A program made the position numbers and the translations under genes. Below the pieces are notes generated by a model. It had not been told where the DNA came from and did not search any database. It was given only the letters and a program-made list of their open reading frames with translations. 64,000 nt of DNA. Origin: an uncultured Lachnospiraceae bacterium. Its GTDB lineage: Bacteria; Bacillota; Clostridia; Lachnospirales; Lachnospiraceae. Where the stretch lies: assembly GCA_945868435.1 (NCBI GenBank), contig CAMBLG010000008.1:14894-78893 (forward strand), in the 5' to 3' direction. How positions within the stretch are numbered: position 1 is the first letter of the stretch; each line of letters opens with the position of its first letter. Shown in pieces: positions 7,014 to 37,906 of the stretch.

Positions 7014-7032
7014 TCTTACAAACAATCCACCT

Positions 7033-8013: not shown

Positions 8014-9144
8014 CTAGTTCAAGCCGAATAATTCCTCCAGCTCATGCTCGTGAATCTCCGTACCGATTACCACGATACGCCCGGTGTAATCCGGCTCACC
8101 CTCGCGGATCTCATACTCGCCCGGAACCATATCAAAGTAGATCCATCCGCCTTCCACATTCTCAACCATGCCCTTGGCACGAAGAATATTGTCAGACTCC
8201 GCAAATCCCTTTAATATCTCTTCGATCTTCGCGCGCTCAAACTTATGAGGCGTCTCCTTACCCCAGCTGGTGAACACATCATCTGCATGATGATGGTGGT
8301 GATGCTCATGATCATGGCAGCCGCAGGTGCAGTTTTCATCGTGCTCATGATGATGCTCATGTTCCTCCTCATGGTCGTGATCATGGTGACAGTGCTCGTC
8401 ATGGTCATGATGATGGTGCTCATGCTCTTCCTCATGGTCGTGATCATGGTGACAATGCCCGTCATGATCATGATCGTGGTGATGATGCTCATGTTCTTCC
8501 TCGTCATGAGCATGACGTGCTTCCGCCAGCGTCTTCATCTCCAGATTATCCTGTCCCTCCATGGCCTTTAAGATCTGCTCACCTTTTATTTCATCCCAAT
8601 TGGTGGTGATGATGGCAGCCTTCGGATTCAATGCCTGAATCTGCTTTACACAGAACTCCAGCTGCTCAGGGGTTGCATTCTGGCTACGGCTCAAAATTAC
8701 TGTGGTCGCATATTCGATCTGATTGTTGAAAAACTCGCCAAAGGCCTTCATCTGCTTGCTGGCCTTTAACGCATTTACAACAGTGACAAGAGCATTGAGT
8801 TTGACATCCTGCGCCTTCTCAATATCAATGACAGATTTCATGACATCCGAAAGCTTTCCCACACCGGAAGGCTCGATCAGAATTCGATCCGGATGATACT
8901 TGGTAATCACCTCATTCAGATTCTTTCCAAAATCTCCCACCAAAGAACAGCAGATACAGCCGGAATTCATCTCTGTGATCTCGATGCCCGCATCCTTCAG
9001 GAAACCGCCGTCAATGCCGACTTCACCGAACTCATTCTCGATCAGCACAATCTGCTCACCCTGAAATGCCTCATTGATCATTTTCTTGATGAACGTTGTC
9101 TTTCCGGCTCCCAGGAAACCGGAAATAATATCAATTTTCGTCAT
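8014..9144 (-). CDS. COG0523/CobW-family metallochaperone GTPase with His-rich insert
   Basis: SGFLGAGKTT, ENEFGE, GCICC, IEPSG, long His/acidic tract, CobW_C-like RAKG. Confidence 0.92.
   Translation of the reverse strand: MTKIDIISGFLGAGKTTFIKKMINEAFQGEQIVLIENEFGEVGIDGGFLKDAGIEITEMNSGCICCSLVGDFGKNLNEVITKYHPDRILIEPSGVGKLSDVMKSVIDIEKAQDVKLNALVTVVNALKASKQMKAFGEFFNNQIEYATTVILSRSQNATPEQLEFCVKQIQALNPKAAIITTNWDEIKGEQILKAMEGQDNLEMKTLAEARHAHDEEEHEHHHHDHDHDGHCHHDHDHEEEHEHHHHDHDEHCHHDHDHEEEHEHHHEHDENCTCGCHDHEHHHHHHADDVFTSWGKETPHKFERAKIEEILKGFAESDNILRAKGMVENVEGGWIYFDMVPGEYEIREGEPDYTGRIVVIGTEIHEHELEELFGLN
8287..8515 (-). repeat. Intragenic tandem repeat encoding the His-rich tract
   Basis: About 2.5 copies of EEEHEHHHHDHD(x)HCHHDHDH; DNA unit cctcatggtcgtgatcatggtgaca occurs twice. 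Confidence 0.75.
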
Positions 9145-9287
9145 AGTTATCGCTCTCCTTATCTATCATACTTTATAGCTTAGTTTGTCCAATATCGTAC
9201 CTAACGTATTCTACTCTTTTTCCATGTAAAATGCAAGAAAGAGCATCGTTCACGCTCCAGTACCCTACAGTATCGTTCAACCTGTTC

Positions 9288-11018
9288 CTACATATGCATA
9301 TGATACAGCTTCTCGTACACGCCACCCTTTCTTAGAAGCTCCTCGTGCGTGCCGGACTCCGCAATTCCCTCCTCCGTCAGCACCAGGATTTTCTCGGCAT
9401 TCTGGATGGTGGTAAGACGGTGTGCAATGACAAAAGTCGTCCGGTTCTTTGCCAGCTTCTCCAACGAGTCCTGCACAACCTTCTCACTCTCGTTGTCCAG
9501 AGCCGAGGTCGCCTCGTCAAAGATCAGGATCGGCGGATTCTTTAAGAACACCCGGGCGATGGACAGACGCTGCTTCTGCCCTCCGGAAAGCTTGATACCC
9601 CGCTGTCCGATATCGGTCTCGTATCCGTCCGGGAAGGACATAATAAATTCATGTGCATTGGCATTCTTTGCCGCCTCAATCACTTCCGCTTCCGTGGCAT
9701 CGGGCTTTCCGTAACGGATATTTTCCATGATAGTTCCGGCAAACAGATACACATCCTGCTGGACCATACCAATCTGATCCCGTAAACTCTTCAACGTCAC
9801 CTTGCGGATATCCTGTCCATCCACAAGAATCCTTCCGTCTGTCACATCATAAAACCGCGGGATCAGAGAACACAGTGTGGTCTTACCGGCACCTGATGAT
9901 CCAACCAACGCCATGTAGGCACCTGCCGGCACCTGAAGATTGATGTGGTTCAGCACATTTTCCTGATTCTCCTGATACTGGAAGGACACATTCTCAAAGG
10001 TGATATCTTCTTTTACATGTGGAAGAACCACAGCATCCTTCGCGTCCTCTATATCCGGCTGAATGTTCATAATCTCGCGAAACCGCTCAAAGCCCGTGTA
10101 TCCATTCTGAAACTGCTCGGTAAAATCCACCAGCGTGCGGATTGGATCCGTGAACACACCAATATAGAGCAAAAATGTAATGAGGTCGCTGATGTCAACC
10201 TTCTGGTAGGCAATCAGAATTCCACCCACTAAAATGACATTAACCTGGATCAGCGTAGTGAACACACCAACCCCCGCCTGAAAACTTCCCATATAGTGAT
10301 AGCTGTTCTTCTTTGCCGCCAGAAATCCGTCATTTCCGATCTTGAACTTTTCTGCCTCTATGTCCTCGTTGGCAAAAGACTTTACCACACGAATGCCGGA
10401 CAGGTTATCCTCAATCTGTGCATTGATCTCCGCAATCTTTTCCCGGTTGCGTTTGAAGGCGCCTCTCATTTTCTTATTCAACAAAAACGCAAAGGCAAAC
10501 ATAAACGGAAGGACAATAAAGGCTGCCAAAACCAGCCATCCGTTGATATTCATTAAAATGACAAAAGCTCCTACAATCTTAAGCACAGAAAGAATGATAT
10601 TCTCCGGACCATGATGCAACAGCTCTGTAATGTCAAACAGATCCGACGTAATACGACTCATAAGCTGTCCGACCTTCGCATCGTCATAGAAGGAAAAAGA
10701 GAGCTTCTGCATATGCTCGAATATTTCCTGCCGCATATCATACTCCATCTTTGCCCCCATCACATGTCCGTAATTGCCTATGAAAAAGCGGCTGTAGCAG
10801 TCTACTGCCAGCAGTACAAACAGGCCGATTGCAATATAGACCATCTGGTGAAGGATTACATCCGCTTCACAGTAGATCAGCGTGGAGGTCACATACCGCA
10901 CCACCAGAGGGATGACCAGAGCCACTCCGGCAGACAGCGTTGCAAAAAACATATCTGCCCAAAAGATATGCAGATATGGCTTATAGTAACTGATCATTTT
11001 CTTCAAATTCTGTCTCAT
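9288..11018 (-). CDS. ABC exporter, fused permease and ATP-binding domains
   Basis: N-terminal TM domain, GSSGAGKT, LSGGQKQR, DEATSALD; start at ATG 11018 after AAGGAG. Confidence 0.93.
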   Translation of the reverse strand: MRQNLKKMISYYKPYLHIFWADMFFATLSAGVALVIPLVVRYVTSTLIYCEADVILHQMVYIAIGLFVLLAVDCYSRFFIGNYGHVMGAKMEYDMRQEIFEHMQKLSFSFYDDAKVGQLMSRITSDLFDITELLHHGPENIILSVLKIVGAFVILMNINGWLVLAAFIVLPFMFAFAFLLNKKMRGAFKRNREKIAEINAQIEDNLSGIRVVKSFANEDIEAEKFKIGNDGFLAAKKNSYHYMGSFQAGVGVFTTLIQVNVILVGGILIAYQKVDISDLITFLLYIGVFTDPIRTLVDFTEQFQNGYTGFERFREIMNIQPDIEDAKDAVVLPHVKEDITFENVSFQYQENQENVLNHINLQVPAGAYMALVGSSGAGKTTLCSLIPRFYDVTDGRILVDGQDIRKVTLKSLRDQIGMVQQDVYLFAGTIMENIRYGKPDATEAEVIEAAKNANAHEFIMSFPDGYETDIGQRGIKLSGGQKQRLSIARVFLKNPPILIFDEATSALDNESEKVVQDSLEKLAKNRTTFVIAHRLTTIQNAEKILVLTEEGIAESGTHEELLRKGGVYEKLYHMHM

Positions 11019-11141
11019 TCCAAACTCCTTTCGCATGGTTTTTTATTTTACCAAGTTATTTCCTTCTTGTCAAAATTTCATAAGAGCATTATTCTATTCA
11101 TGAATCATCTTTTTTATACAAAATCTATGGAGGAATGACCT

Positions 11142-11780
11142 ATGAACATTCGCGAAACATACAATGCCAAACTTGCCGACACCGTAATCGGCAACCTGAA
11201 AAAGCGCCAGATTGAAGCCGTGTACTGCGCTACCGCACAGGAGGCCTGCACCACTGCCCTGTCCTATGTAAACCCAGGGGACAGCGTATCCTTCGGCGGT
11301 TCCATGACCTTAGAAGAGGCCGGAATCCTCAGTGCCCTGCGGGATCGGTCCGATATCGCACTGATCGACCGGGCGAAGGCCCAGACCCCGGATGAAACCG
11401 CTAAAATGTATCACGATGCGCTGTCCTGCAACCGATATTTTATGAGTGCCAACGCCATCACCCAAAGCGGTGAGCTTGTGAACATTGACGGCAACGGCAA
11501 CCGCCTGGCGGCCCTGATCTATGGCCCGGAGCAGGTAATTGTCGTGGCAGGAATGAACAAGATCGTACCGACTGTCACGGATGCTGTGGATCGGGTTCGA
11601 AACACTGCGACTCCCTTAAACTGCATTCGCTTAAACCGGGCCACCCCCTGTGCTTCCACCGGTGTATGCGCGGACTGCCTGTCTTCGGACTGCATCTGCA
11701 ACCAGATCGTAGTTACAAGGCGCAGCGGTAATCCCGATCGGATTAAGGTGATCCTTGTGGGAGAAGTCCTGGGTTATTAA
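11142..11780 (+). CDS. LUD-domain (lactate utilization family) protein
   Basis: GGSMTL, SANAIT, NIDGNGNR, GPEQVIVVAGMNKIV and a Cys-rich C-terminus; GGAGG RBS. Confidence 0.85.
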   Translation: MNIRETYNAKLADTVIGNLKKRQIEAVYCATAQEACTTALSYVNPGDSVSFGGSMTLEEAGILSALRDRSDIALIDRAKAQTPDETAKMYHDALSCNRYFMSANAITQSGELVNIDGNGNRLAALIYGPEQVIVVAGMNKIVPTVTDAVDRVRNTATPLNCIRLNRATPCASTGVCADCLSSDCICNQIVVTRRSGNPDRIKVILVGEVLGY

Positions 11781-11798
11781 GGAAATTAGTATCTATTA

Positions 11799-11830
11799 AA
11801 AAATACCCCCGGGAATCTCCCGGGGGTATT
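11799..11830. terminator. Terminator between the convergent LUD gene and rpsU
   Basis: AATACCCCCGGG-aatct-CCCGGGGGTATT stem with an A run on the left (U tract on the minus strand). Confidence 0.85.
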
Positions 11831-11840
11831 GATCACAACT

Positions 11841-12017
11841 TTAGTTGTATTTTCTTTTTCTAGCAGCTTCAGACTTCTTCTTGCGCTTAACGCTTGGCTT
11901 CTCGTAATGCTCACGCTTACGAATCTCCTGCTGGATACCAGCCTTCGCACAGTTTCTCTTGAAACGACGTAATGCGCTATCTAAAGTCTCATTCTCTTTT
12001 ACGATTACACTAGACAT
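11841..12017 (-). CDS. rpsU: 30S ribosomal protein S21
   Basis: Not in the ORF track (58 aa). Translation [58 protein letters not shown]; GGAGGGAGG RBS. Confidence 0.98.
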
Positions 12018-12088
12018 CTACACCTAACCTCCCTCCAGTTGCGATATTGTGCATCAACTGTAAGGTAATCTGAATTGCACTATCGAAT

Positions 12089-12116
12089 ATTTTATCAAAA
12101 AATCCGCATTTGTCAA
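12089..12116 (-). promoter_or_regulatory. SigA promoter of rpsU
   Basis: TTGACA-16 bp-TAAAAT with an extended -10 TG. Confidence 0.65.
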
Positions 12117-12174
12117 TAGATTTTACAAATTTCATGTAAAAACCATCCAACACCTGAAGCGGACCGTAACCGGA

Positions 12175-12366
12175 TTACAGCTTGGTGAAAATTGCGGTCT
12201 CATTCATAGAATTCTTTAGGGTATCCGTGCGCTGTTTAAACTCACCCATCACACCCTCTATATTCTGATCGATTGCATCGGAATAATCTGAAATTGCCCC
12301 ATTGGCAAGGGAATAGGCCCCTTCATTATTGCCGGCGGCACTGTAGGCCATAAGATTCTCACTCAT
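12175..12366 (-). pseudogene. Possible remnant of a methyl-accepting chemotaxis gene
   Basis: 63-codon frame with no clear RBS. LMAYSAAGNNEGAYSLANGAISDY and IEGVMGEFKQRTDTLKNSM resemble separate parts of clostridial MCPs by eye only. Confidence 0.3.
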
Positions 12367-12385
12367 ACCATTTTGTAAAGGTATG

Positions 12386-12429
12386 AAAAGCCCCACTCTT
12401 CTATTTTTCACAAAAGAATGGGGCTTTTT
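12386..12429. terminator. Terminator after alaS
   Basis: AAAAGCCCCA...TGGGGCTTTT inverted repeat with flanking A and T runs. Confidence 0.75.
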
Positions 12430-12457
12430 GCTTGCATTTTGTTCAATTTTACCAGTT

Positions 12458-15148
12458 TTAAGAAAGCATACCTTCCAAGGCTCCGGTAGCTGCCGCAATC
12501 GCCTCCGGGATACCTGCCGGATTCTTTCCTCCTGCCTGAGCCATATTTGGACGTCCGCCGCCGCCTCCTCCGACAAGACCGGCGATCGCCTTGATCAGAT
12601 TTCCTGCATGCGCTCCCTGCTTCATGGCTGCATCTGTAGCCATGGCAATCAGGTTCACTTTTCCGTCACATTCAGAAGCAAGTACCACAACGCCCTCACC
12701 AAGCTTATCCTTCAACTGATCTCCCAGTTCTCTGAGTCCGTTCATATCGACACCTGCCACACTGGTAGCAAGAAGCTTCACGCCTTTTACCTCTGTGACA
12801 CGGTCCATCACATCTCCCAGAGCCTCCTTGGCAGCCTTGCTCTTCAAGGATTCATTCTCACTCTGCAATGCCTTCATCTCTGCCATCAGCTTCTCCAGAC
12901 GATCCTTTAAGTTCGCCGGAGTTGCCTTGACAACCTTGGCAGCCTCATGGAATTCTTCCTCCAGTTTTGCATAATACTGAAGTACATTTCCACCGGTCAA
13001 TGCCTCAATACGACGTGTTCCCGCTGCGACACCGCTCTCGGAAATAATCTTGAACGCACCGATATCACCGGTGTTCTTCACATGGGTACCACCACAGAAT
13101 TCTTTCGAGAAATCCCCCATAGAAACAACACGAACTGTCTCTCCGTACTTCTCTCCGAAAAGTGCAATGGCACCGGTCTTCTTTGCCTCATCTACCGTCA
13201 TCACTTCTGTGACAACCGGAATCTTCTCTGCAATCTTCTCATTGACCAGCTTCTCAACCTTTGCCAGTTCTTCCTGAGTCATAGCAGAAAAATGGCTGAA
13301 GTCGAATCTGGTTCGTTCCGGATCCTGGTAGGAACCTGCCTGCTCAACATGTGTACCCAGTACCTCACGCAGTGCCTTCTGTAATAAATGGGTTGCAGAA
13401 TGATTGCTGCAGGTCTGCGCGCGCAGCTTTTCATCCACAGACAGGCGAACCTCCTCTCCCATGGAGATCATACCGGATTCCATATAGCCGACATGTCCGT
13501 ATTTATTACCGACAAGCTTCACAGTATCCTCCACAACAAACTTGCCGTTGCCGGTCTCAATTACACCCTTATCTCCCTGCTGGCCACCCATGGTCGCATA
13601 GAATGGGGTCTTTTCCACAACAATGGTTCCGTGCTCACCCTCTGCAATGGCGTCAGCTAATGCAGAAACCGCAGCACCTTCTCCATTGTCGGCAGCTGTG
13701 GCAATAACCGTAACCTTTGATGTACAGACCAGATTGTCATAACCGACAAACTCCGTTACAATTGCCGGATCCACCTGCTCGAATACGGTTGCGTCAGCAC
13801 CCATATAATTGGTCACCTTGCGGGCATTGCGGGCACGGGTTCTCTGTTCCTCCATGCATGCGTGAAATCCCGCTTCATCATAAGAGAATCCCTTCTCCTC
13901 CAAAATCTCAGCTGTCAGATCTACCGGGAATCCGTAGGTATCATAAAGCTTAAAGGTATCTTCACCGGAAAGTACCTTGGTTCCATTCTTCTCCATGTCC
14001 GCCATCATATCGGAAAGGATTGCAAGTCCCTGATCGATCGTCTTGTTGAAGCTCTTCTCCTCCTCGGTCAGAATCTTAAAGATATAATCCTTCTTCTCTT
14101 CCAGCTCGGAATATCCATCCTTGCTCTGGTTAATAACGGTCTCAGACAATTTTGCCAGAAACAGTCCGTCAATGCCAAGCATTCTGCCATGTCTTGCGGC
14201 ACGGCGGATCAGACGGCGAAGTACATATCCTCTTCCCTCATTGGACGGACGCACGCCATCGGATACCAAAAACGTTGAAGAGCGGATATGATCCGTGATC
14301 AGACGAATGGATACGTCATCCATCGCATCCGTATGATATGTCTTGCCTGACATCTCACAGATCTTGTCCCGGATAGCCTTCATGGTATCAATGTCAAATA
14401 CAGAATCCACATCCTGCATTACCACTGCAAGACGCTCCAATCCCATACCGGTATCGATATTCTTCTGGGCCAGTTCCGTATAACCGCCCTTACCGTCTCC
14501 CTCAAACTGAGTGAATACGTTGTTCCACACCTCCATAAAGCGGTCACACTCACAGCCCACTTTACAGTTCGGGTCTCCGCAGCCATACTTTTCACCGCGG
14601 TCATAATAGATCTCGGAACACGGTCCGCAAGGTCCTGCACCATGCTCCCAGAAGTTATCGCACTCTCCGGTCACCGGATCACGATAGAACCGGGTAATCC
14701 GATCCTCCGGAATGCCGATCTCCTTGTTCCAGATCTCAAACGCCTCATCATCCTCACCATAGATGGACGGATACAGGCGATCCTTCTCCAGACCAAGCAC
14801 CTCAGTCAAAAATTCCCATGACCAGGCAATTGCCTCATGCTTAAAGTAATCTCCAAAAGAAAAATTGCCAAGCATCTCAAAAAAGGTAAGATGTCTTGCT
14901 GTCTTACCGACATTCTCAATATCACCGGTCCGCACACACTTCTGGCATGTGGTGACGCGTCGTCTCGGTGGAATCTCCTGTCCCGTAAAATAAGGCTTGA
15001 GCGGTGCCATACCCGCATTGATCAACAGAAGACTGTTATCGTTGTGCGGGACAAGCGAAAAGCTCTTCATTGCAAGATGATCCTTGCTCTCAAAAAATTC
15101 CAGATACATCCGGCGCAGTTCATTCACGCCATAACTCTTTTTCATCAC
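12458..15148 (-). CDS. alaS: Alanine--tRNA ligase
   Basis: NAGMAPLKPYF, RHLTFFEMLGNFSFGDYFK, GPCGPCSEI, HSATHLL, FCGGTHV, GGGGRP. Confidence 0.99.
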   Translation of the reverse strand: MMKKSYGVNELRRMYLEFFESKDHLAMKSFSLVPHNDNSLLLINAGMAPLKPYFTGQEIPPRRRVTTCQKCVRTGDIENVGKTARHLTFFEMLGNFSFGDYFKHEAIAWSWEFLTEVLGLEKDRLYPSIYGEDDEAFEIWNKEIGIPEDRITRFYRDPVTGECDNFWEHGAGPCGPCSEIYYDRGEKYGCGDPNCKVGCECDRFMEVWNNVFTQFEGDGKGGYTELAQKNIDTGMGLERLAVVMQDVDSVFDIDTMKAIRDKICEMSGKTYHTDAMDDVSIRLITDHIRSSTFLVSDGVRPSNEGRGYVLRRLIRRAARHGRMLGIDGLFLAKLSETVINQSKDGYSELEEKKDYIFKILTEEEKSFNKTIDQGLAILSDMMADMEKNGTKVLSGEDTFKLYDTYGFPVDLTAEILEEKGFSYDEAGFHACMEEQRTRARNARKVTNYMGADATVFEQVDPAIVTEFVGYDNLVCTSKVTVIATAADNGEGAAVSALADAIAEGEHGTIVVEKTPFYATMGGQQGDKGVIETGNGKFVVEDTVKLVGNKYGHVGYMESGMISMGEEVRLSVDEKLRAQTCSNHSATHLLQKALREVLGTHVEQAGSYQDPERTRFDFSHFSAMTQEELAKVEKLVNEKIAEKIPVVTEVMTVDEAKKTGAIALFGEKYGETVRVVSMGDFSKEFCGGTHVKNTGDIGAFKIISESGVAAGTRRIEALTGGNVLQYYAKLEEEFHEAAKVVKATPANLKDRLEKLMAEMKALQSENESLKSKAAKEALGDVMDRVTEVKGVKLLATSVAGVDMNGLRELGDQLKDKLGEGVVVLASECDGKVNLIAMATDAAMKQGAHAGNLIKAIAGLVGGGGGGRPNMAQAGGKNPAGIPEAIAAATGALEGMLS

Positions 15149-15183
15149 TCGTTTCCTCCATCTAACTTATACTGCGCAATCTG

Positions 15184-15348
15184 TTACTTTCCGGCACCTT
15201 CCGGCAATTCCTCCGCTTTTGCAGACGCTGCCTTTGCATCCTTCGACTTGCGCAATTTGATTCCGATAAATCCACCAAGTATTCCGATTCCGGCCAGAAT
15301 GACCATGATAATCACATACTGGACAATACACAATAGAAAATCAACCAT
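15184..15348 (-). CDS. Small single-TM membrane protein (54 aa)
   Basis: GGAGG RBS, hydrophobic helix followed by a Lys-rich tail; co-oriented upstream of alaS. Confidence 0.7.
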   Translation of the reverse strand: MVDFLLCIVQYVIIMVILAGIGILGGFIGIKLRKSKDAKAASAKAEELPEGAGK

Positions 15349-15415
15349 CCCATTACCTCCTATGTTCCGTGGCTTGTACCACTTCCACAACTATCTTATT
15401 ATATATGAACTTATT

Positions 15416-16180
15416 TCATAATTCAAGTAGTCCGTCAAAGTCAAACACCTGATTCTCCCCAGTGATATCCATGAGCCTGTCTGCCATACCCGAATTCGGG
15501 ATGCGCTTTTTGTACTCCTCAATGCCGGAATAATCCTGCCACATGTGCATCGGAAACACATACTTTGCATCGGTATTCTTCAGGAAAAAGTCCATGCCGG
15601 CCCATTGGTGCTGCCCAAGCCTTGGGTCCATTGGCACAAAAGCCACATCAATCGGGCGTTCGGCAAGTTTCTTGATCTCATGCTGATAGGTTCTTCTCAT
15701 TTTGCCGTTGATCAGGTCTCCTGCCCCCTCCATACGCCAGTCGTTCAGGTCTCCCGCATGGAACAGCTTTACCCCGTCCGAAATCACATAAAAAGCCACT
15801 CCGGCATCCGTCGACTGTAATGTGTAAATCTCAAGATCGTCCACCTCGAAATGCTTGTCCGGATTCACAAAGGTCACGCGCTCCCGGACCGCCGGATCGA
15901 TCCCGTGCTTGCGCAAAAAGTTGGGACTGATACGGATATCCTTCGATAAAATATAATGAATATTTGCAAATCGTTCACTTAGGCGCAGAATATCCAAATC
16001 AAAATGATCCTGATGGCTGTGGCTGGCAAACAGATACAGCCGCGTATCCGGTGCATAATCCGGAAGACGGCCTGCAAAATGATAGCCATTGACCCGCTCC
16101 CCATCGAAGTAATCAAATACAAGCACCTTATCTGCAAGCTCCACTGCAAAGCAGCTGTGATGAATAAACCTTATCTGCAT
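15416..16180 (-). CDS. MBL-fold metallo-hydrolase
   Basis: HSHQDH (HxHxDH), FHAGD, PMH motifs. Confidence 0.88.
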   Translation of the reverse strand: MQIRFIHHSCFAVELADKVLVFDYFDGERVNGYHFAGRLPDYAPDTRLYLFASHSHQDHFDLDILRLSERFANIHYILSKDIRISPNFLRKHGIDPAVRERVTFVNPDKHFEVDDLEIYTLQSTDAGVAFYVISDGVKLFHAGDLNDWRMEGAGDLINGKMRRTYQHEIKKLAERPIDVAFVPMDPRLGQHQWAGMDFFLKNTDAKYVFPMHMWQDYSGIEEYKKRIPNSGMADRLMDITGENQVFDFDGLLEL

Positions 16181-25568: not shown

Positions 25569-26378
25569 CTACAGGGCGTTCAATTCCCTCTTAAATGTGC
25601 TGCAGTACTCTGCCGCCGCCTCCGGCGAAAATGCATGTTCTCTCATCAGATTGATAAAATGTGTTCCTACGATTGCACCGTCGATTACATCCTTCATCGG
25701 TGCCACATCCTCCGCCGTGCGGATTCCGAATCCCATCATCACCGGAATCTTTGATATCTCCTTCACATTGGCCAGATAGCCCATAACCTCCCTGTGGAAG
25801 GAAGCCTCCTGTCCCGTTACACCCATGGAAGATACGCAGTATACAAAGCCTCTGGCATTCTCAAGAATCATCGGCACACGGTTCTTTGACACCGGAGATA
25901 CCAGCTGAATCAGAATGGTCTCCTGCTCTGCCTTCGCATTGCTCTCATCCAGCGCATTCTGCAGTTCCTCCTGCTCCTCAAAGGGAAGGTCCGGAATGAT
26001 CAGACCGTCCACGCCGCAAGCTCTGCATTTTTCCGCAAAAGCCGTCATTCCATAGTGTAGCACCGTATTGTAATACATCATAAACACAATTGGAAGTTTA
26101 ACGCCCTCCTGGCGCAGTTCTTTCATGCAGGTAAAGGTTTTCTCCAAAGTCGCACCGCCTAAGATTGCATCGTAGGATGCCGCCTGGATAACCGGGCCAT
26201 CTGCCACCGGATCCGAAAATGGAATTCCCAGCTCGATGATGTCCGTTCCTGCCTGCTCCTGAGCCTTGATGATAGCCTTGGTTTTTCCGTAATCCGGAAG
26301 ACCGGCGGTAATATATGTGATAAACGCCTTTTCTTTTTTCTCCTGCAGTCCTGCAAGAGCCTGTTCGATTCGATTCAT
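25569..26378 (-). CDS. trpA: Tryptophan synthase alpha subunit
   Basis: ELGIPFSDPVADGPVIQ, IIPDLP, GVTG, GFGI. Confidence 0.97.
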   Translation of the reverse strand: MNRIEQALAGLQEKKEKAFITYITAGLPDYGKTKAIIKAQEQAGTDIIELGIPFSDPVADGPVIQAASYDAILGGATLEKTFTCMKELRQEGVKLPIVFMMYYNTVLHYGMTAFAEKCRACGVDGLIIPDLPFEEQEELQNALDESNAKAEQETILIQLVSPVSKNRVPMILENARGFVYCVSSMGVTGQEASFHREVMGYLANVKEISKIPVMMGFGIRTAEDVAPMKDVIDGAIVGTHFINLMREHAFSPEAAAEYCSTFKRELNAL

Positions 26379-26422
26379 AATTTTCCTCCTAATCTATGAA
26401 CATCCGTCTATGGTCTGAACGA

Positions 26423-27610
26423 TTAATTTAAGTATCCTTTGCCCGCAAGGTAATCTGAGATGGTGTTGACATCCTTATCTCCACGCCCGGACAGGCAGAC
26501 GATCATGCTCATGTCTTTAGTCATCTCCTTCGCCTTTTTCATGGCGTAGGCAACCGCATGGGCACTCTCGATTGCCGGAATGATTCCCTCCAGCTTACAG
26601 AGCTCCAAAAGAGCATCCATGGCCTCCTTATCGGTGATGGACACATAGGTAGCTCGACCGCTGTCCCGCAGGTACGCATGCTCCGGTCCCACTCCCGGAT
26701 AATCCAGACCTGCAGAGATGGAATGTGCCAGCTGGATATTGCCGTCCGTATCCTGAAGCAGATACGAACGCATTCCGTGAAGTACGCCCGGCTCACCAAG
26801 AGCCATGGCAGATGCATGCTTTCCGGTCTCGATGCCGAGTCCTGCAGCTTCTACGCCGATCAGCTCCACATCCTTTTCCTCTATAAACTCCGCAAACATA
26901 CCGATGGAGTTGGAACCGCCTCCCACACAGGCCATTACCACGTCCGGGTTACGCCCCTCAACCTCCATATGCTGGCGCTTTGCCTCCTTGCTGATGACGC
27001 TCTGGAATTCCTTGACCATCTTCGGATACGGATACGGTCCCACCGCGGAACCAATTACATAGAAGGTATCTTCAGCAGTCTTGGCCCAGGTCCGAATTGC
27101 CTCGTTGGTAGCATCCTTTAAGGTATTGCTTCCGGATTCCACTGACACGACCTTTGCGCCCAGCATCTCCATACGCATCACATTCAGCTTCTGTCTCTCA
27201 ATATCCTCTTTTCCCATATACACGGTACACTCCATGTCAAAGAGCGCCGCTCCCGTGGCGGTTGCCACACCGTGCTGTCCGGCTCCGGTCTCTGCGATAA
27301 CTTTCTTCTTACCCATGCGCTTGGCGAGAAGAATCTGACCAATCACGTTGTTGATCTTGTGGGCGCCCGTATGATTCAAATCCTCACGCTTCAGATAAAT
27401 CTTCGTTCCGTATTTCTCACTGAGGCGCTCCGCCAGATACAGCGGGGTCTCTCTTCCCACATACTGGCGCAGATATCTGTGATATTCCTCCATAAACGCC
27501 GGATCATGGATAGCCTCCTCAAAGGCCCGGTCCAATTCCTCCAATGTATTCATCAACGATTCTGCCACATACTGGCCACCGAATTCTCCATAATATGCTT
27601 TCTTATTCAT
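26423..27610 (-). CDS. trpB: Tryptophan synthase beta subunit
   Basis: [42 protein letters not shown]. Confidence 0.98.
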
Positions 27611-28256
27611 AATCTCTTACCTCTCTGATAAATGTCATGATCTTATCCATGCTTTTTGCACCTTCGTCCTCCACACCGGAGCTGACGTCCACCACATCTG
27701 GGTCAAACAGCCGTATGCCCGCCTGCACGTTTTCCGCCCGAAGACCGCCTGCAAGGATCAGTTTTCTTTCCGTAAATTCTTTTTGGCTGCGCCATCGCCT
27801 CACTGTCTGCTTAGCGTTCACATCCCAGGCAAAGGTTTTGCCGCTTCCATACTGTGCTCCGTCCATGACAAAGCCATCGATTTTCTCTGCCAGAGCTTCC
27901 GGCAGTGTTCTTATCCCCGACAGGCGCTCTGTCAGTTCTTCCGTCTTGGACAAGTTCACAGCAAACCAGATGGGAAGCTCTGCCAGCTCCAGAACCTCGT
28001 TCGATAAAGTTCCGTGAATCTGCAGAATGTCAAAGCCGGCTTTCTGAACCATCTCCACTGTTGCCACCTCCGGCGACACCATAACGGCCACTTTTTTTAT
28101 TCCCGGATTTAATGCTTCCATAATTACTTTTGCTTCTTCAATCGTTACGTTTCGTCTGCTGGGCGGATGAAACACAAACCCGGCATAGTCCGCGCCTGCG
28201 GCATTTAGATACTGTGCCTCCTTTGGTCTGGTCAGACCGCATATTTTAATCTGCAT
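27603..28256 (-). CDS. trpF: Phosphoribosylanthranilate isomerase
   Basis: IKICGLT, QIHG, GSGKTF, LAGGL, DVSSGVE; start at ATG 28256. Confidence 0.93.
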
Positions 28257-28296
28257 ACGTTTTCCTTTCTGATAGGCTGGCTTCCTGTTCTGCATG

Positions 28297-29091
28297 CTAC
28301 CGGGATGCTTCTTCGTAGATCTGTTTCCAATGCTGCGCCACCGTCTTAGGATCTTCCGCTTCCATAAATGCTCTTCCGATCAGGAATGCATCCACGCCGC
28401 AGGAATTTAAGAACTGCACGTCCTCATCTCCCATAATGCCGCTCTCCGCCACAAACACCTTATCCGCAGGGACATAGGGACGAAGCCTTCTGGTATTTTC
28501 CAGCGATATGGTAAAATCCTTAAGATTGCGGTTATTTACGCCAAGTATTCTCGGATTTATTTTAAGCGCACGCTCCATCTCTGCCTCATCATGGGTCTCT
28601 ACCAACACATCCAGACCAAGCTCTCTTGCCAACTGATAGAAGTCTCGAAGCTGCGCGTCATCCAGAATCGCAGCTATGAGAAGCACTGCATCTGCACCGA
28701 TGGCTTTGGCCTCATAGAACTGGTATTCCTCGATCATGAAGTCCTTTCTCAAAATGGGCAGCTTGCTCTTCTCTCGAATCTGCTTTAAATAGTCCACATT
28801 CCCGCAGAAGTGATCCTCCTCCGTCAGGCAGGAAATGGCATCCACCGACGCATTGTAGATGTCGATGCGTTCCATCAGATCAATCTTCTGTGAAATCTGC
28901 CCCATGCTTGGGGATGCCTTCTTGAACTCCCCGATTATGGAAAGCCCCGGCTTTTTCAGATTCCGGTAAAAACAATCGGCATCTCTTGTGGGGGTCTGCT
29001 CCGCAAGCCTGCGCATCTTTTCTTCACTTACCTTCGCTTTGTGCTCCAAAAGGCGTTTTTTCTTATCTTCTACAATCTGGTCTAAAATCAT
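28297..29091 (-). CDS. trpC: Indole-3-glycerol phosphate synthase
   Basis: IGEFKKASPS, LRKDF, GADAVLLI, GVNNRNL, AESGI. Confidence 0.96.
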   Translation of the reverse strand: MILDQIVEDKKKRLLEHKAKVSEEKMRRLAEQTPTRDADCFYRNLKKPGLSIIGEFKKASPSMGQISQKIDLMERIDIYNASVDAISCLTEEDHFCGNVDYLKQIREKSKLPILRKDFMIEEYQFYEAKAIGADAVLLIAAILDDAQLRDFYQLARELGLDVLVETHDEAEMERALKINPRILGVNNRNLKDFTISLENTRRLRPYVPADKVFVAESGIMGDEDVQFLNSCGVDAFLIGRAFMEAEDPKTVAQHWKQIYEEASR

Positions 29092-29122
29092 TGTTGTTCT
29101 TCCCTTTTCTTGTTCAATGGTT

Positions 29123-29155
29123 GTACCTATTCAGAACCACCTTACGAATAGTTAC
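29123..29155. mobile_element. Minimal 33 bp member of the CTATTC..GAATAG MITE-like family
   Basis: GTACCTATTC / GAATAGTTAC ends. Interior shares CTATTCAGAACC and CCACCTTACGAAT with the 61599-61795 element. Flanks CAATGGTT / CAACAGTT match at 6 of 8. Confidence 0.6.
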
Positions 29156-29165
29156 CAACAGTTTT

Positions 29166-29735
29166 CTAAATCCGGTCATTCACAAAGTTCTCGATCAATC
29201 GCTTTCCGTGTTCCGTATAGATGGACTCCGGATGAAACTGCAACCCCACCACCGGATACTCCTTATGGCGGATTGCCATAATCTCACCGTCATCGGTTCT
29301 GGCCAACACCCGTAAGCACTCCGGCAGATCATCTTCCTGCACGGCAAGAGAATGGTAACGAGCTACTTTGATCAGCGAATCAATACCGGTAAATATACTG
29401 CTTCCATCGTGGGCTATCACGGACTGTTTGCCGTGAAACAGCGCTTTGGCATAGGATACGGTTCCGCCGAAGGCTTCCCCGATGCACTGATGTCCAAGGC
29501 AGATACCGAGAATCGGGATCTCTCCGGCAAAGGCCTTTACCACATCCATACAGATGCCGGCCTCCTTCGGGCTCTTTGGTCCCGGCGACAGAACAATCCG
29601 CTCCGGCTTCAGATTACGGATTTCCTCAATGGTTATCTTATCGTTTCGAACAACCCGAATATCCGCATTGAAAATTCCAATATACTGATACAGGTTATAC
29701 GTAAATGAATCATAGTTATCGATCATGAGAATCAT
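29166..29735 (-). CDS. trpG: Anthranilate synthase component II
   Basis: IDNYDSFTYNL, SPGP, GICLGHQ, RYHSL, QFHPES; ATGA overlap with the trpE stop. Confidence 0.95.
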   Translation of the reverse strand: MILMIDNYDSFTYNLYQYIGIFNADIRVVRNDKITIEEIRNLKPERIVLSPGPKSPKEAGICMDVVKAFAGEIPILGICLGHQCIGEAFGGTVSYAKALFHGKQSVIAHDGSSIFTGIDSLIKVARYHSLAVQEDDLPECLRVLARTDDGEIMAIRHKEYPVVGLQFHPESIYTEHGKRLIENFVNDRI

Positions 29736-31144
29736 AAGTTTTCCTCCTCTACCAGCGTCTTTGCCAACGCCATAACCTTGTTGCAGCATTCCTGATACTC
29801 ATTCTCCGGAATAGAGTCCGCTACAATTCCGGCGCCTGCCTGCAAATATACCTGATTTCCTTTCTTTACCATGGTTCGGATGGTAATACAGAAATCCATG
29901 TCGCCCGAAAAGTCGACATATCCGGTAGCACCACCGTAGAGTCCTCTCCGCACACTCTCCAGCTCATCAATGATCTCCATGGCACGAATCTTCGGAGCTC
30001 CACTTAAGGTTCCCGCCGGAAGGAAGGAGGATACCAGGTCTAATGGATGAAACTCGCCTTTTTTTCTGCCCTCCACCATAGATACAATGTGCATCACATG
30101 GGAATAATTCTGCACTTCCATGAACTGGGTAACCTTTACCGTTCCGAATTCTGCGATGCGTCCCATATCGTTTCTTGCCAGATCCACCAGCATGACATGC
30201 TCGGCGCGCTCCTTTTCATCCTGAAGCAGGTCATCCTTCAAAAGCGCATCTTCCTCCGCATCCACACCGCGTCTGCGTGTTCCTGCAATGGGACAGGTGA
30301 AAACGCGTTTTCCCTGCTGTTTTACGATCATCTCCGGCGAACTTCCGATCACCTCAAAGTCACCATAGTTGAAATAGTACAGATATGGGGATGGATTTAA
30401 CTCCCGCAATTGTTTATACAGGTCAAATCCCTTTTGCTGTGTCTCCACCGTCCAACGCTGCGATAATACGGTCTGGAAAATATGGCCTTCCCTTATGTAC
30501 TCCTTGATCTTCTCAACTTTTCCGGAATAATCCTCCAGTGTGTCGGATTTTTTGACGATCACGCCATCTCTTAAAACCTTCTGCGCGGAAGCCTTCACCG
30601 GCTTCCTCAGTGCCTGATCGATCAATTCCTGTGCTTCCTGCAGGCTCTCCTTTTTGCCTTCTTCGCTGTCCGCTCCCAGAATCACGGCTGTCAGGGTTTC
30701 CGCTTCATGATCCACCAGGATGAATTTTGTCATCAGCATCATCTGGATGGTATCAATTCCAATCTCATCGGGATTATTATCCGGCAGTACCTCCGCGTAC
30801 CGAACAAAATCATAGCCCAGATTTCCAACCAGTCCGCCGCTGAAGGAAAGCTCCTCGTTGTCCTTCACAATGTCAAACTCGCTGTAGTATTCCTTCAGGC
30901 GTTCCAGGGGATTGCCCTCCCGCACCTTTCGGCTTCCATCCTGCTTTGTGATAACCAGCGCATTGCCCTCGGATGTGATAATCTCCTCCGGCTCCTTTCC
31001 GAAAAATGTATAGCGGTCATAATTCTTGTCATAACTTTCCAGAAGAAAGCCCTTCTTTTCTCCCACCAGACTCTCATACATATCAGTGGAGGTCTCATTT
31101 ACAATACTGACCGTCTTCTTGTATACGCGCAATCTTCGTTTCAT
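29732..31144 (-). CDS. trpE: Anthranilate synthase component I
   Basis: LLES, NPSPY, SSPE, PIAGTR, EHVMLVDLARND, GTLSGAPK. Confidence 0.95.
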   Translation of the reverse strand: MKRRLRVYKKTVSIVNETSTDMYESLVGEKKGFLLESYDKNYDRYTFFGKEPEEIITSEGNALVITKQDGSRKVREGNPLERLKEYYSEFDIVKDNEELSFSGGLVGNLGYDFVRYAEVLPDNNPDEIGIDTIQMMLMTKFILVDHEAETLTAVILGADSEEGKKESLQEAQELIDQALRKPVKASAQKVLRDGVIVKKSDTLEDYSGKVEKIKEYIREGHIFQTVLSQRWTVETQQKGFDLYKQLRELNPSPYLYYFNYGDFEVIGSSPEMIVKQQGKRVFTCPIAGTRRRGVDAEEDALLKDDLLQDEKERAEHVMLVDLARNDMGRIAEFGTVKVTQFMEVQNYSHVMHIVSMVEGRKKGEFHPLDLVSSFLPAGTLSGAPKIRAMEIIDELESVRRGLYGGATGYVDFSGDMDFCITIRTMVKKGNQVYLQAGAGIVADSIPENEYQECCNKVMALAKTLVEEENL

Positions 31145-33575: not shown

Positions 33576-35927
33576 TTATTCTGTTTCCTCCACCTGTTCC
33601 ATAAAATAAATCCTTGATCCAAAATCCTGGAAATACCGGGTCTCGTCATTGTATCCGGTGCCCGCAAACGCCTGGTGGATCTTCACACCGGACATAAGGC
33701 TTCCTCCTGTGGCAGTGTAACACTCCGTCTCCCCGGGCATGGTCACAAATTTGGCAAGCACATTGTGTATGAGGGAATCCTGACGGATGTGAATCGGAGC
33801 CACCGTATTCACCAGGTCTCCAAATTCCTTTACATTATAACGCAGATTGCGATTGGTGAACACATATTTTTTCTCCGCATCAAGCCCTTTTGCACAGTAT
33901 TGGTCGAACTGGGAATTGGCCTGTACCAGCTCCTGCATGAGAAGTCCCACTGCCCGGGTCTGATCCTGTGACACACAGCTCCACTCATGAATATTGTCAC
34001 AACGGCCCCGGTAAAAACGCCCGGTCTGCAGTACCTCTCTCCATGCCTTGTAAACGATAATCTGGTTTTTGATTTCCTCCAGATCTTCCTTTTTCATGTC
34101 ACAGAGATTGCATTCGTATCCGAAGGAACCGAATGCCGCCACGTTAAATCTGGTGGAAAGAGGTGTCGTCCGCAGGGTCTGGTGATTCGGACATGCGGAC
34201 ACATGAGCGCTGACCGTATTCATGGGATATCCATAGCTGTATCCGGTCTGTCCCTTCACGCGGTACAGCGCATCCGTGTCATCACTGGCCCAGATTTGCG
34301 GGAAAAAGCACAGGATGCCCAGATCAAACCGATTGCCGCCGGAGGCACAGCCCTCAAAGAGAATTTTCGGAAAACGCTTCACCAGCTCTCCCATCACACG
34401 ATACAGTCCCATGATGTAGCGGTGCGCCACTTCCCCCTGGTGCGCCGCATCCAGATACGGGGAATAATAATCCGAGAAAATGCGGTTCATATCCCATTTC
34501 ACATAGGCGATGTTGGCACTGCCAAACACCTTTGTCATGGTCTCAATGATATAATCACACACCTCAGGATTAGCCAGATCCAAAATGCGTTGGTTTCGCC
34601 CCTCCGAATGAGGTTTTCCCGGAATTTCCATCACCCAGTCCGGATGCTCCCGGTACAGATTACTGTCCACATTGACCATCTCCGGCTCCACCCAGATGCC
34701 GAAATCCAGCCCAAGAGCATTGACTTTCTTACAAAGACCATCCAGTCCGTTGGGAAGCTTCTTCGGATTTACCTCCCAGTCACCCAGAGAGCGCCTGTCA
34801 TCATTCCGCTCTCCAAACCACCCGTCATCCATGACAAACAGCTCAATGCCCACATCCTTTCCGGCCTTGGCCAGGCGGAGCAGTTTTGTTTCACTGATAT
34901 CAAAGTAAGATGCCTCCCAGCTGTTTAGAAGCACCGGACGAAGCTTATCTCTCCATTCGCCCCGCACAACACACCGGCGCACAAAGTCATGCATATGCTG
35001 GCTCATTCCGTTAAACCCCTCATTGGAGCACGTCAGTACAGCCTCCGGGCTCTCAAAGGACTCTCCCGGCTCTATAAGGAAGCAAAAGGACTGCGGATTG
35101 ATTCCCGACACGAAACGGGTTTTGTCAAAAGAGCTGACCTCCACTGCCTCGTAATGATTGCCGCTGTATATCAGATTCATGCCATAGCATAGACCGGTAT
35201 CTTCATCCGTCTTTGCCTCTGAAATCATTACAAAAGGATTGGCGCGGCTTCCGGAGCTTCCGGTATAGGAAGAATTCACCAGCTTTCCGGCAGTCACCAC
35301 CGTATCATGCCGCATCATCTCCCGCGCCCAGCCACCGTTGAAGGTAGAAAACACAAATCCGCTTTTTTCAAAGTCCAGCTGCGCACTCATCAGCCGAAGA
35401 AGCCGGATGGTATCGCCGCTCATATTGATCAGCTTGGACCAGCGGGTAATGACATCCTGTGTCTCAAACACACAGTAGTGAAGCTCCAGTGTCAACTCAT
35501 AGGAAATATCCGTCAGGGTAACCACCAGTTCCTCTGTGCATCCGCTGTCATCATATGAGGACGGCAGCGTAAGGAGCGGTGTCTTTTCTGTCTTAATCTC
35601 TGCACTTTCATACCGAAAATCGCTGGTTCGGCTGCCATCTGCATGCACCACTTCCACAAACGGCTCCCGGATATCGCCTTTGCCGTAGGAAGACATCTCC
35701 AGCCGCATATCCTCCAGGGAATACTGCGGATGATCCTGGTCATAGATATTCGTATTTCCCGGCGCAAAGGCATGCTTTTCCCGAAGCACCTCCGCCTCCG
35801 CTTCCGATTCGATCACAATGCTCGGTCCATAATACAGATGCTCCAGTTGTCCTGTTGGCAGAAGACCAAAGCAGTATGTGGTATGCCCGGTATCCAATAC
35901 CCATATATTTCCCATCTGACAAATCAT
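33576..35927 (-). CDS. Alpha-galactosidase (GH36)
   Basis: NSWEA, FVMDDGWFG, FGIWVEPEMV, KWDMNR, CASGGNRFD, WASDDTD; start at ATG 35927 after GGAGGAG. Confidence 0.95.
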   Translation of the reverse strand: MICQMGNIWVLDTGHTTYCFGLLPTGQLEHLYYGPSIVIESEAEAEVLREKHAFAPGNTNIYDQDHPQYSLEDMRLEMSSYGKGDIREPFVEVVHADGSRTSDFRYESAEIKTEKTPLLTLPSSYDDSGCTEELVVTLTDISYELTLELHYCVFETQDVITRWSKLINMSGDTIRLLRLMSAQLDFEKSGFVFSTFNGGWAREMMRHDTVVTAGKLVNSSYTGSSGSRANPFVMISEAKTDEDTGLCYGMNLIYSGNHYEAVEVSSFDKTRFVSGINPQSFCFLIEPGESFESPEAVLTCSNEGFNGMSQHMHDFVRRCVVRGEWRDKLRPVLLNSWEASYFDISETKLLRLAKAGKDVGIELFVMDDGWFGERNDDRRSLGDWEVNPKKLPNGLDGLCKKVNALGLDFGIWVEPEMVNVDSNLYREHPDWVMEIPGKPHSEGRNQRILDLANPEVCDYIIETMTKVFGSANIAYVKWDMNRIFSDYYSPYLDAAHQGEVAHRYIMGLYRVMGELVKRFPKILFEGCASGGNRFDLGILCFFPQIWASDDTDALYRVKGQTGYSYGYPMNTVSAHVSACPNHQTLRTTPLSTRFNVAAFGSFGYECNLCDMKKEDLEEIKNQIIVYKAWREVLQTGRFYRGRCDNIHEWSCVSQDQTRAVGLLMQELVQANSQFDQYCAKGLDAEKKYVFTNRNLRYNVKEFGDLVNTVAPIHIRQDSLIHNVLAKFVTMPGETECYTATGGSLMSGVKIHQAFAGTGYNDETRYFQDFGSRIYFMEQVEETE

Positions 35928-35952
35928 ATCGTTCTCCTCCTCTGTCCTATTA

Positions 35953-36506
35953 TCTATGTGTTTGTGCCCCTCGCAGAACGAAGGAATGCATATCAATTTT
36001 GCGGCTTGCTCACAATCCTTCTACTCATGGATCCAGAATCACGACTTTGTTGCAGCATGGATTTCTCTTTTCTTATGATTCGTGTCCGCCATAGTCTCGA
36101 ACAATTTCCGCCGGATTGTTCGCCCAAGAGTGAGAACGGCTTAGAGTGATTCGCATTTGCCTTACATGGGCGCATGAACAAAATGTGCCGCCGCAGGGCA
36201 ACTGTTTGAGCAGCACAACATGGTGGCATATCGCTTTACTTGAAGCGAGTTTTGCCCAAGGCGGCTCATATCAACTTTGTGAAGGCGCCCATTTAGGCAA
36301 ATTCGAGGAACGGGTTAGCCTTCTCACTTGGGCGGACAACCGGCGGGAAATTGTCGACACGCATTTCGGACACGAACGTTCAGAAAAATCCATGCCGCTA
36401 ACAAAGTCAGCAATTCTGTCTAAATCGTTAGAAGGATTCGTGAGCAACCTCGCAAAAAAGACAATCGTTTTTTGCGTTCTGCGAGGAGCATCCTCAAACA
36501 CCTACA
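35953..36506. repeat. 554 bp rod-like imperfect palindrome filling the melB-GH36 intergenic region
   Basis: Collinear paired blocks 35969-35980/36475-36486, 36014-36023/36429-36438, 36079-36088/36367-36376 and 36166-36173/36285-36292; flanked by TATTA direct repeats. Confidence 0.9.
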
Positions 36507-36508
36507 TA

Positions 36509-37906
36509 TTACTTGCTACGGGTCCGAATCTGCGCATCGATTTCCTCCAGCTTCTCATCTGTCAGGAAATAATGTCTCTTGAACACCACAAATCCAATAA
36601 CCAGCACAACAATTGGCAGAATCGTCATACATCCCCGAAGCCCAATCCGCTGTCCGTCTGTGAGCACGGAAAGCACACCGGTCTCGTCCTTCTTGATGTG
36701 GAATACCGTCAGAACTATAGACGCCACAAGGGCAGAAAATCCGGATGCCAGCTTTACTACAAAGGTTTGCATGGAAAAGATCACCGACTCATCGCGGCGT
36801 CCGTTCTTCCACTCTCCATAGTCTACCGTATTGGCCAAAAACACTGTCACAATGACATTGAGCATTCCCACAGCAGCCATAATGAGGAATGCCGGGATCA
36901 AGAGCAGATATACATTCTGCGAGCCCGTGGCTGAAATGATCAGGATCATCACATATCCGGCCATTGCCATACCAAAGCTCACCGCAAACAGCTTCATCGA
37001 ATTCATGAACTTTCGAAGAAGCGGAAACAGAAGCATCATGGCAAGAATCTGAAAGACTCCGCCGCAGGTGTTAAACAGCGTGTAATTGCCCTCCCAATCA
37101 GCCGGACTGAAATCGTATTTGAAGAAGTAGATTAGAAGATTCTGGGTGATGTATAACGCCGTATTGATCATAACGATTGCAATCACCATCGTCATCGCCT
37201 GATCGTTCTGTATCAGTGCCTTAAACATATCCTTAACCGATGCCGACTCCATCTGAACGGAGGATTTTTCCTTGATGACCGTACAGGTGACGGTGATAAA
37301 TACCACAAAAGTAACGGCTACAATAAGAGCAACCAGACGGTATCCGATGCGCTCATAATCCGCATCGGTACCAAAAGCATGCCCCAGTGCACTGACTGCC
37401 ATAACCGTCACTATGGATATGATGGCGGAACCCACTCCCGCGCAGGATCTGGCCAGGGCAGAAAGTCCCTCCCGCTCTTTACCGGCCTCCGTGAATGCCG
37501 GAACCATGGACCAGTACGGAATATCCATCATGGTGTAGGTCACGCCCCAGAGAATATACGTCACCGCCGCATACGCAACCAATCCGTTACCGGAAAGACT
37601 TGGTGGAGCGGAAAACATCAGGAAAAGTACCACCGCATTGGTCAGTGTTCCAATCATAAGCCAGGGGCGGAATTTGCCCCATCTGGTTTTCGTCTTTGCC
37701 ACCAGAATCCCCATGACCGGATCATTGAACGCATCAAACACGCGTGCAACTGCCAGAATGATTCCCATGGCAATCGCACTGACCCCCATCACATCCTGAT
37801 AGTAATACAGAATATATGCTGCGGACAGCATGTACACCATATCCTTGCCTACCGCACCGATGCCGTAGGCAAACTTCTCTCCCCCGGATAATTTCTTTGT
37901 TTCCAT
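36509..37906 (-). CDS. melB: Glycoside-pentoside-hexuronide:cation symporter (MelB-like)
   Basis: AYGIGAVGKD, FDAFNDP, TRWGKFRPW, YTMMDIPYWS, VDYGEWK. Confidence 0.88.
   Translation of the reverse strand: METKKLSGGEKFAYGIGAVGKDMVYMLSAAYILYYYQDVMGVSAIAMGIILAVARVFDAFNDPVMGILVAKTKTRWGKFRPWLMIGTLTNAVVLFLMFSAPPSLSGNGLVAYAAVTYILWGVTYTMMDIPYWSMVPAFTEAGKEREGLSALARSCAGVGSAIISIVTVMAVSALGHAFGTDADYERIGYRLVALIVAVTFVVFITVTCTVIKEKSSVQMESASVKDMFKALIQNDQAMTMVIAIVMINTALYITQNLLIYFFKYDFSPADWEGNYTLFNTCGGVFQILAMMLLFPLLRKFMNSMKLFAVSFGMAMAGYVMILIISATGSQNVYLLLIPAFLIMAAVGMLNVIVTVFLANTVDYGEWKNGRRDESVIFSMQTFVVKLASGFSALVASIVLTVFHIKKDETGVLSVLTDGQRIGLRGCMTILPIVVLVIGFVVFKRHYFLTDEKLEEIDAQIRTRSK

Follow-up and report, generated by a model that had tools for sequence, protein, structure and literature searches.

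The window, that is, the whole stretch of 64,000 nucleotides analysed in this work, contains a long foldback sequence between two genes that are both read from the minus strand. Upstream lies the gene of a GPH-family (MelB-like) sugar:cation symporter (36509–37906, minus strand; TIGR00792 over cut-off). Downstream follows a glycoside hydrolase gene (33576–35927, minus strand) with a weak NCBIfam match, its GH36 label being taken from the preliminary description of this locus. The Shine-Dalgarno-like sequence of the hydrolase gene, which starts at 35927, occupies 35932–35941 of the minus strand, 13 nt outside the left end of the foldback. Elsewhere in the window, 25569–31144 holds a tryptophan biosynthesis gene run, by sequence recognition putative trpE, G, C, F, B and A.

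Our analyses confirmed that the rod between the symporter and hydrolase genes is a real fold. Every helix quoted in the preliminary description of this many-helix foldback could be located in the sequence, for example, 35965–35980/36475–36490 and 36014–36039/36413–36438. Compared with shuffled controls, both strands fold far more stably (z −15 to −17): as RNA, 35940–36520 reached −267 kcal/mol on the plus strand (z −15.3) and −282 kcal/mol on the minus strand (z −17.5), with 0 of 100 shuffles as good in either case, and as DNA the plus strand of 35955–36504 reached z −16.1. Two plus-strand ORFs, 35643–36149 and 36146–36934, cross the element. They run antisense to real genes and are not preserved in other copies, and the earlier statement that no credible ORF lies inside hence stands.

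The whole unit comprises 550 bp (35955–36504; intact relatives have 543–549 bp). Its limits are set by remnants of an insertion-sequence terminal repeat, a weak one on the left (35955–35970, plus strand; 9/15 to the repeat, profile p 0.07) and a better one on the right (36489–36504, minus strand; 11/15, p 0.002). Further inwards, comparison of copies delimits an outer stem found in the window copy only, in which 35971–35995 pairs with 36458–36488 (both plus strand), and then the part common to the host-genome copies (35996–36457; 86–96% identity in blastn). Nested within the latter is a genus-wide core (36025–36428) of covarying helices between conserved bulges and internal loops, roughly the part that switches orientation between strains. 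The apical TCGCTT/AAGCGA hairpin noted earlier is present in the window but varies among copies; according to the alignment of copies, the conserved apex is instead the flanking motif pair, the near-invariant TGTYTGAG (36202–36210, plus strand) and CGAGTT (36245–36252, plus strand). By eye, these halves could pair as tandem G·A with a 5-nt bulge, which would resemble a kink-turn; in that motif, tandem G·A pairs come after a bulge and lie between two helices, and proteins of the L7Ae family bind it. The TATTA direct repeats of the preliminary description do exist (35948–35952 and 36507–36511), but a clean target duplication is absent. They sit within a 9-nt pair, 6/9 alike (35946–35954 and 36505–36513, plus strand; the right one overlaps the melB stop codon at 36509–36511, minus strand), just outside the ends set by the repeat at 35955 and 36504. 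As it adjoins these ends, the pair may be a worn target duplication; the insertion sequence itself makes 11–13 bp.

In the host genome, an assembly of 84% completeness, the search for further copies yielded eight, one of them internally deleted, all intergenic and in either orientation to their neighbors, which are unrelated genes at the copies inspected. An adjacent transposase, for which the preliminary description had advised looking at other copies, was found at none of those inspected in the host or its relatives. The outer 40–60 bp per side differ between host copies yet pair within each copy, and outer-stem and end sequences are more variable than the core within a genome. Variant blocks look shuffled among the host copies, which suggests exchange between them. 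The host also has other long imperfect palindromes that do not match the family (G000:C11:8537–8900, C18:40429–40735, C3:76115–76296 and C16:993–1160).

Orthologous melB–hydrolase spacers from relatives were short in 29 of 29 cases (−17 to 288 nt; the 30 best loci were taken, one being the window itself), and four of these short-spacer genomes bear the element elsewhere (G087, G113, G130 and G161). This spacer is a frequent landing site: in other species it holds unrelated hairpins or tandem repeats of 159–288 nt (L050, L040, L056 and L048). In two public runs, a short allele of the species lacks 562 bp, 35939–36500, whereby three letters fit either side. It does not match the predicted empty site with one TATTA, and since a clean pre-insertion site would be longer by 3 nt, it may represent a later deletion by slippage. 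Among metagenome contigs, we found no same-species alleles of the window locus.

Sequence and pattern searches led to relatives of about 70% identity in genomes titled Agathobacter or Lachnobacterium, and from one distant member a second subfamily was reached. Of 151 genus genomes searched with a covariance model of the inner 143 core positions, 53 contained the core, and the closed genome G063 alone gave 53 matches; among 150 Lachnospiraceae genomes from other genera, 10 contained it. Many of the 98 genus genomes that gave no match are incomplete. A pattern scan of GTDB returned 30 loci, of which 28 match the core profile and two, in unrelated taxa, do not. The element was not matched in plasmid and phage collections. 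A strict pattern matched 0 viral contigs and a looser pattern 13, the best model E being 3e-5; two weak model matches among viral contigs bear the apex motif (L358, E 3e-5; L357, E 2e-4). Our full-text literature search, from whose scope most subscription journals fall out, returned no description of this element family.

Of the 115 pairs predicted for the approximately 400-nt core, 68 change on both sides in an alignment of 24 copies, and 93.8% of alignment cells pair, compared with 30–43% in slid controls; these counts use a structure derived from the same alignment and take related copies individually. Rfam scans, including ribozymes and TwoAYGGAY (RF01731), gave nothing at gathering score, all five matches lying far below, and no already described family was thus recovered. 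The preliminary description had named a single copy with neither empty-site orthologs nor covariation, or a match to a known Rfam or ISfinder element, as reasons to give up its reading; eight copies, short orthologous spacers in relatives, strong covariation and no Rfam match were found. The best-kept letters across 103 distinct cores are the apex pair and short motifs at loop edges, and unpaired and paired columns are on average equally conserved (0.81 vs 0.81). G·U use favors neither strand of the core, and G·U counts gave no strand assignment. Covariation alone is no proof of selection, as template switching can yield compensatory blocks, according to the part of bioRxiv 10.1101/2021.04.15.439925 that deals with them. 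A better argument for selection would be that bulges, asymmetric loops and apex persist against homogenization, at 59–72% mean identity and across genera. Whether it is on RNA that selection keeps the rod core we regard as an evenly balanced question.

Several copies carry the end motif TAGGCGTTTGCGAAA, of which 107 matches were among those listed, in 38 of 157 genus genomes, compared with two for the reversed control. The motif equals the terminal repeat of a 1742–1767-bp insertion sequence with a DUF772+DDE transposase found in relatives, and three of five complete copies of it have perfect 11–13 bp duplications. This 1.74–1.77-kb insertion sequence (L390, L392 and L393 in G062; L395 and L396 in G102), to which NCBIfam assigns no family, strongly prefers sites just upstream of ribosome-binding sites. 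Ten rod-bearing units with the same terminal repeats were found (505–561 bp), five of which, all ten being from relatives, have 10–12 bp target duplications with at most one mismatch. Units bounded by insertion-sequence repeats, half of them with a target duplication, are therefore MITE-like. Anti-SD sequence stands 8–30 nt outside an end at 25 of 30 loci (5–9% in controls), and five of seven host copies are placed in this way. Neither blastn nor profile comparison revealed homology between the core and the insertion sequence, and the core is therefore cargo rather than a deletion derivative. The same terminal repeats also enclose other interiors in small MITEs of 73–225 bp (L361, L386, L402–L405 and L408). 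At three further loci (L383, L384 and L391), ends and arms are intact and the apex sequence is replaced.

In the host, 6 of 14 copy ends reach p<0.01 against the repeat profile, each lying 271–280 nt from the apex, and 8 of 14 fall short; the profile included a few chance strings. Copy C25 has near-perfect terminal repeats. No clear target duplication was seen at the seven full host copies, and none is evident in the G063 rods. Judged by its sequence, the window copy is a decayed family member with worn ends. A DUF772 search of the 84%-complete host assembly gave no match. Of the cognate transposase, just an 89-aa fragment of 71% identity was found there, and the enzyme is probably dead in this genome by now.

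The preliminary description had suggested a non-autonomous mobile element that travels as ssDNA or RNA. Its mobility is supported by the eight copies, by the short spacers in relatives and by other copies that have insertion-sequence ends and target duplications; the ssDNA or RNA route is not, as the likely mover is a DDE transposase acting on dsDNA. As candidate partners, Y1 transposases and reverse transcriptases were both rejected, neither co-occurring with the element (Fisher p=1 each; 151 genomes plus G118 set against 157, with unlisted genomes scored negative). Y1 transposases were found neither in the host nor in several high-copy genomes, and one weak RVT_1 match was found in the host genome (E 4e-13). 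Since neither enzyme tracks the element, both an HUH-type ssDNA route and an RNA route are disfavored. An HUH peel-and-paste element of REPIN or IS200/605 type is accordingly very improbable: covarying arms and a conserved tip are combined in an imperfect hairpin in REPINs as well, but 10–13 bp target duplications and DDE-type ends speak against such an origin, as does the missing Y1 transposase.

Under strict patterns, 66 of 103 cores scored "none" for a terminal repeat, many of them in sister species. Homologous cores are flanked by IS1182-type ends in G075 (14 of 26 ends) and, more loosely, in G063 (11 of 52, control 1 of 52), and by eye further end types surround cores in other genera. The IS1182 elements of the genus (L304 and L317–L346) fold at each end into a small terminator-like hairpin. 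We rejected an IS1182 derivation of the window lineage: 0 of 14 host-copy ends reach 10 bits against IS1182-type ends, and the transposase matching the window-type ends scores 77–80 bits, below the IS1182 cut-off of 270 (NCBIfam NF033551). The tree calls for a minimum of one switch in end type and gives no resolution beyond that. A tree test of one clade for IS1182-type ends (p-AU 3e-6; 26 of 103 cores used) was rejected as evidence, because unlabeled rows nest within the clades. At the family level, the element fits most of the MITE definition, and we are highly confident that it spreads in the manner of a MITE. It is evidence against a young MITE that the ends are more variable than the cores within a genome, the reverse of what would be expected.

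Among sister species, 3 of 7 shared-locus groups show both core orientations, and once metagenome contigs were added, 11 of 12 groups did so (68 of 86 loci had enough flank). Flank identity across flipped pairs reaches 98–100%, breakpoints fall mostly in the outer stem, 195–285 nt from the apex, and orientation counts are near even among strains. The longest perfect stems are at most 25 bp in four flipped groups, which makes assembler error unlikely there; in five groups they measure 46–69 bp, and mis-orientation by the assembler is possible at these. We think it quite probable that the core truly flips in place. In two studies, RNA contigs connect the flank of copy C12 with the arm from the other side, as would be seen in a flipped strain or through an artifact of reverse transcription. 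In G075, one inner core is inverted relative to its own outer arms (L222), and one short rod is closed by host flank that was copied in inverted form, perfectly over 12 bp (L219).

Some element loci are kept across sister species. At L096 and L098, with empty orthologs, the outer stem consists of host flank and a new imperfect inverted copy of it. At L094, three "empty" orthologs still have the outer stem, and in one of them a remnant of an arm is left; we rejected them as pre-insertion sites and read them as deletions. Orthologs of L102 and L104 are too diverged to read. At L124 and L126 (G118), L398 and L401, the apex is lost symmetrically, and the remainder still forms hairpins. Flank copying and core deletion are expected marks of template switching.

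Three host copies (C1, C2 and C12) carry an 81-nt insert of two hairpins at the position corresponding to 36090/36091, which is absent from the window copy and has 21 nt in common with the P12 region of rnpB. The host RNase P RNA (G000:C18:31467–31878, minus strand; L265 and L268) has its P12 helix extended by this two-hairpin module, as in the three rod copies. The module further occurs in RNase P RNA P12 of four other genomes (L273, L276, L277 and L279) and, in three more, between genes as a repeat that is free or in tandem (L270, L274 and L275). Given this distribution, capture of host RNase P RNA by the rod was rejected as a sign of RNA recombination, and the module is a separate small repeat, to all appearances a small mobile hairpin that enters structured RNAs.

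RNA data were taken from five metatranscriptomes of three pig-gut studies as contig depth only, with strand, ends and true level outside what contigs give. In X15, depth for the window element was 4,700–15,800 compared with 25 on the flank, and 30- to 400-fold over flank at the C12 copy; the window copy is missing from this strain, whose deep contig most resembles C12, with seven differences in 355. Depths on the element compared with the flank were 46–234 vs 3–7 in X14 and 95–268 vs 0–6 in X16, in both up to about 40-fold or more, and up to 84 vs 0–5 in X18, about 20-fold. X17 gave 18–105 vs 0–25, a 5- to 14-fold ratio that is not clearly above that of DNA; in the DNA runs X3 and X6, the element lies about 4–12-fold over its flanks, as copy number predicts. 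In four of five RNA runs, element depth thus mostly exceeds the flanks 20- to several-hundred-fold. Library preparation may favor structured RNA and inflate these depths; still, the element probably gives rise to abundant RNA. No circle back-joint was among the contigs listed in either of the two contig alignments, although contigs can attest to a presence and not to an absence. A sigma-70-like promoter was not found in the window copy, and read-through is therefore the likelier source of RNA there. That a structured RNA may be cut from the operon transcript, as the preliminary description proposed, agrees with the high RNA contig depth.

Taken together, the element in the window is probably a worn copy of a non-coding, MITE-like foldback element of about 550 bp that likely yields abundant rod RNA on read-through. 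The DDE transposase of the insertion sequence, borrowed in trans, would mobilize it via the common terminal repeats. Once the element is in place, the outer stems could be perfected by recombination or template switching from arm to arm, and the same arm events could copy neighboring host DNA into the stems, flip the core or delete it. Exchange between copies would keep the cores alike, and selection on a folded single strand, most likely RNA, would maintain core bulges and apex. Transcription of the host operon through the element would then leave a rod-shaped RNA that is both stable and abundant. A double-strand RNase, for instance RNase III, might cut the well-paired outer stem and thereby release the core, and the same cut would process the operon mRNA immediately before the ribosome-binding site of the next gene; we put forward this release of the core by RNase III tentatively, and the odds are somewhat against it.

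The alternative that survives best, although we consider it rather unlikely, is a parasite at the DNA level only, whose ssDNA or cruciform fold is kept by template switching and the needs of transposition, with RNA as a stable by-product without a role. The lack of G·U strand bias agrees with it, and the flips, the symmetric apex deletions (L124, L126, L398 and L401) and the copying of flanks all take place in DNA, which can form tandem G·A pairs, too. However, template switching should erase asymmetric loops, yet bulges and apex persist, as described above. DDE transposases act on dsDNA ends, and a folded interior is not known to be required by them.

Unlikely to a somewhat greater degree is a broader proposal in which a rod RNA, selfish or functional, makes up the approximately 400-nt core and predates all of its carriers. 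Borne by different insertion-sequence ends across Lachnospiraceae, flipping in place and present at hundreds of times the level of neighboring transcripts, possibly with RNA-templated copying, it would be a bacterial counterpart of SINEs and retroviroids. In a stricter version, which we find improbable, a SINE-like or viroid-like RNA is copied back to DNA or replicates as RNA and lands in existing MITE hairpins or terminators, so that the terminal repeats are targets and not the vehicle. Homologous cores between at least two end types (the window-type repeat and the IS1182 type, others by eye) could be read in this sense, as could small MITEs of 73–314 bp with the same ends and no full core, the equal folding of both strands, the very high RNA contig depth in X15 and the short rods of G075 with host-derived inverted flanks. 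Against this, units of end plus core have target duplications and common outer stems at unrelated loci, and ends and core therefore moved together. Moreover, the listed contigs gave no circle, reverse transcriptases do not co-occur with the element, Rfam holds no ribozyme match and the tree forces just one change of end type.

Slightly less probable again is a host-domesticated family of regulatory RNAs that serves the neighboring gene as a processing or stabilizing element or as an orientation switch. Landing beside ribosome-binding sites, the near-even orientation counts and the loci kept across sister species would suit such a role. The distribution is patchy, however, with 98 of 151 genus genomes unmatched (many incomplete), the neighbors are unrelated genes, the core is deleted at several loci and a sigma-70-like promoter is missing from the window copy. 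In preference to these alternatives, we hold to a MITE-like element with a conserved rod core.

With this reading, vehicle, target rule and conserved payload can be named for a repeat family present in about one-third of the searched genomes of a common gut genus. The element also bears on the question why interiors of MITEs such as bcr1 and ERIC keep their folds, offering a near-invariant apex, alleles with and without core, two orientations and public runs in which the RNA looks very abundant. If the RNA has a life of its own, a novel type of selfish RNA in bacteria would be at hand; otherwise, the element is still one that settles next to ribosome-binding sites and may alter operon mRNAs differently in different strains.

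Viroids, retrozymes and Obelisks have a bulged rod fold, stability in both polarities and abundant RNA, and retrozymes have DNA copies as well. The element described here differs from them by DDE-type ends with target duplications and in that no ribozyme, circle or ORF was seen. The IS1182 family (NF033551) and the related DUF772+DDE element supply both rod end types, their transposases each having PF05598 and a DDE domain. Some MITEs, not all, have interiors derived from an insertion sequence, which our element does not, and the inversion of Correia elements is a precedent for flipping. In mobile insertion cassettes of the MIC231 type, insertion-sequence ends enclose unrelated cargo, as here, although the cargo is a gene there and a non-coding rod in our element. 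These cassettes are named in sections of PMC6542083. As characterized in portions of PMC3184786, bacterial MITEs (ERIC of 127 bp, Correia/nemis and RUP) are likewise non-coding, intergenic and multi-copy, with insertion-sequence terminal repeats, target duplication, long stem-loops and co-transcription, and some of them change mRNA stability. They are given there as "generally less than 200 bp, some about 400," compared with about 550 bp here, and with a TA duplication in contrast to 10–13 bp. Moreover, a covarying rod, its loops and apex conserved, takes up the entire interior of our element, and the same core stands between different end types. From the excerpts on ERIC, Correia and bcr1 in PMC3184786 and PMC6542083, it is size, a deeply conserved rod core unrelated to the carrier, the variety of end types and frequent flipping that set our element apart. 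bcr1 of the Bacillus cereus group, as portrayed in the same excerpts, is comparable in being mobile and transcribed, in a fold kept by compensatory changes and in tens of copies per genome. It differs in its length of about 155 bp, its cruciform shape, its 5-bp repeats and the absence of a named transposase from these excerpts, a comparison by description in which homology is not expected.
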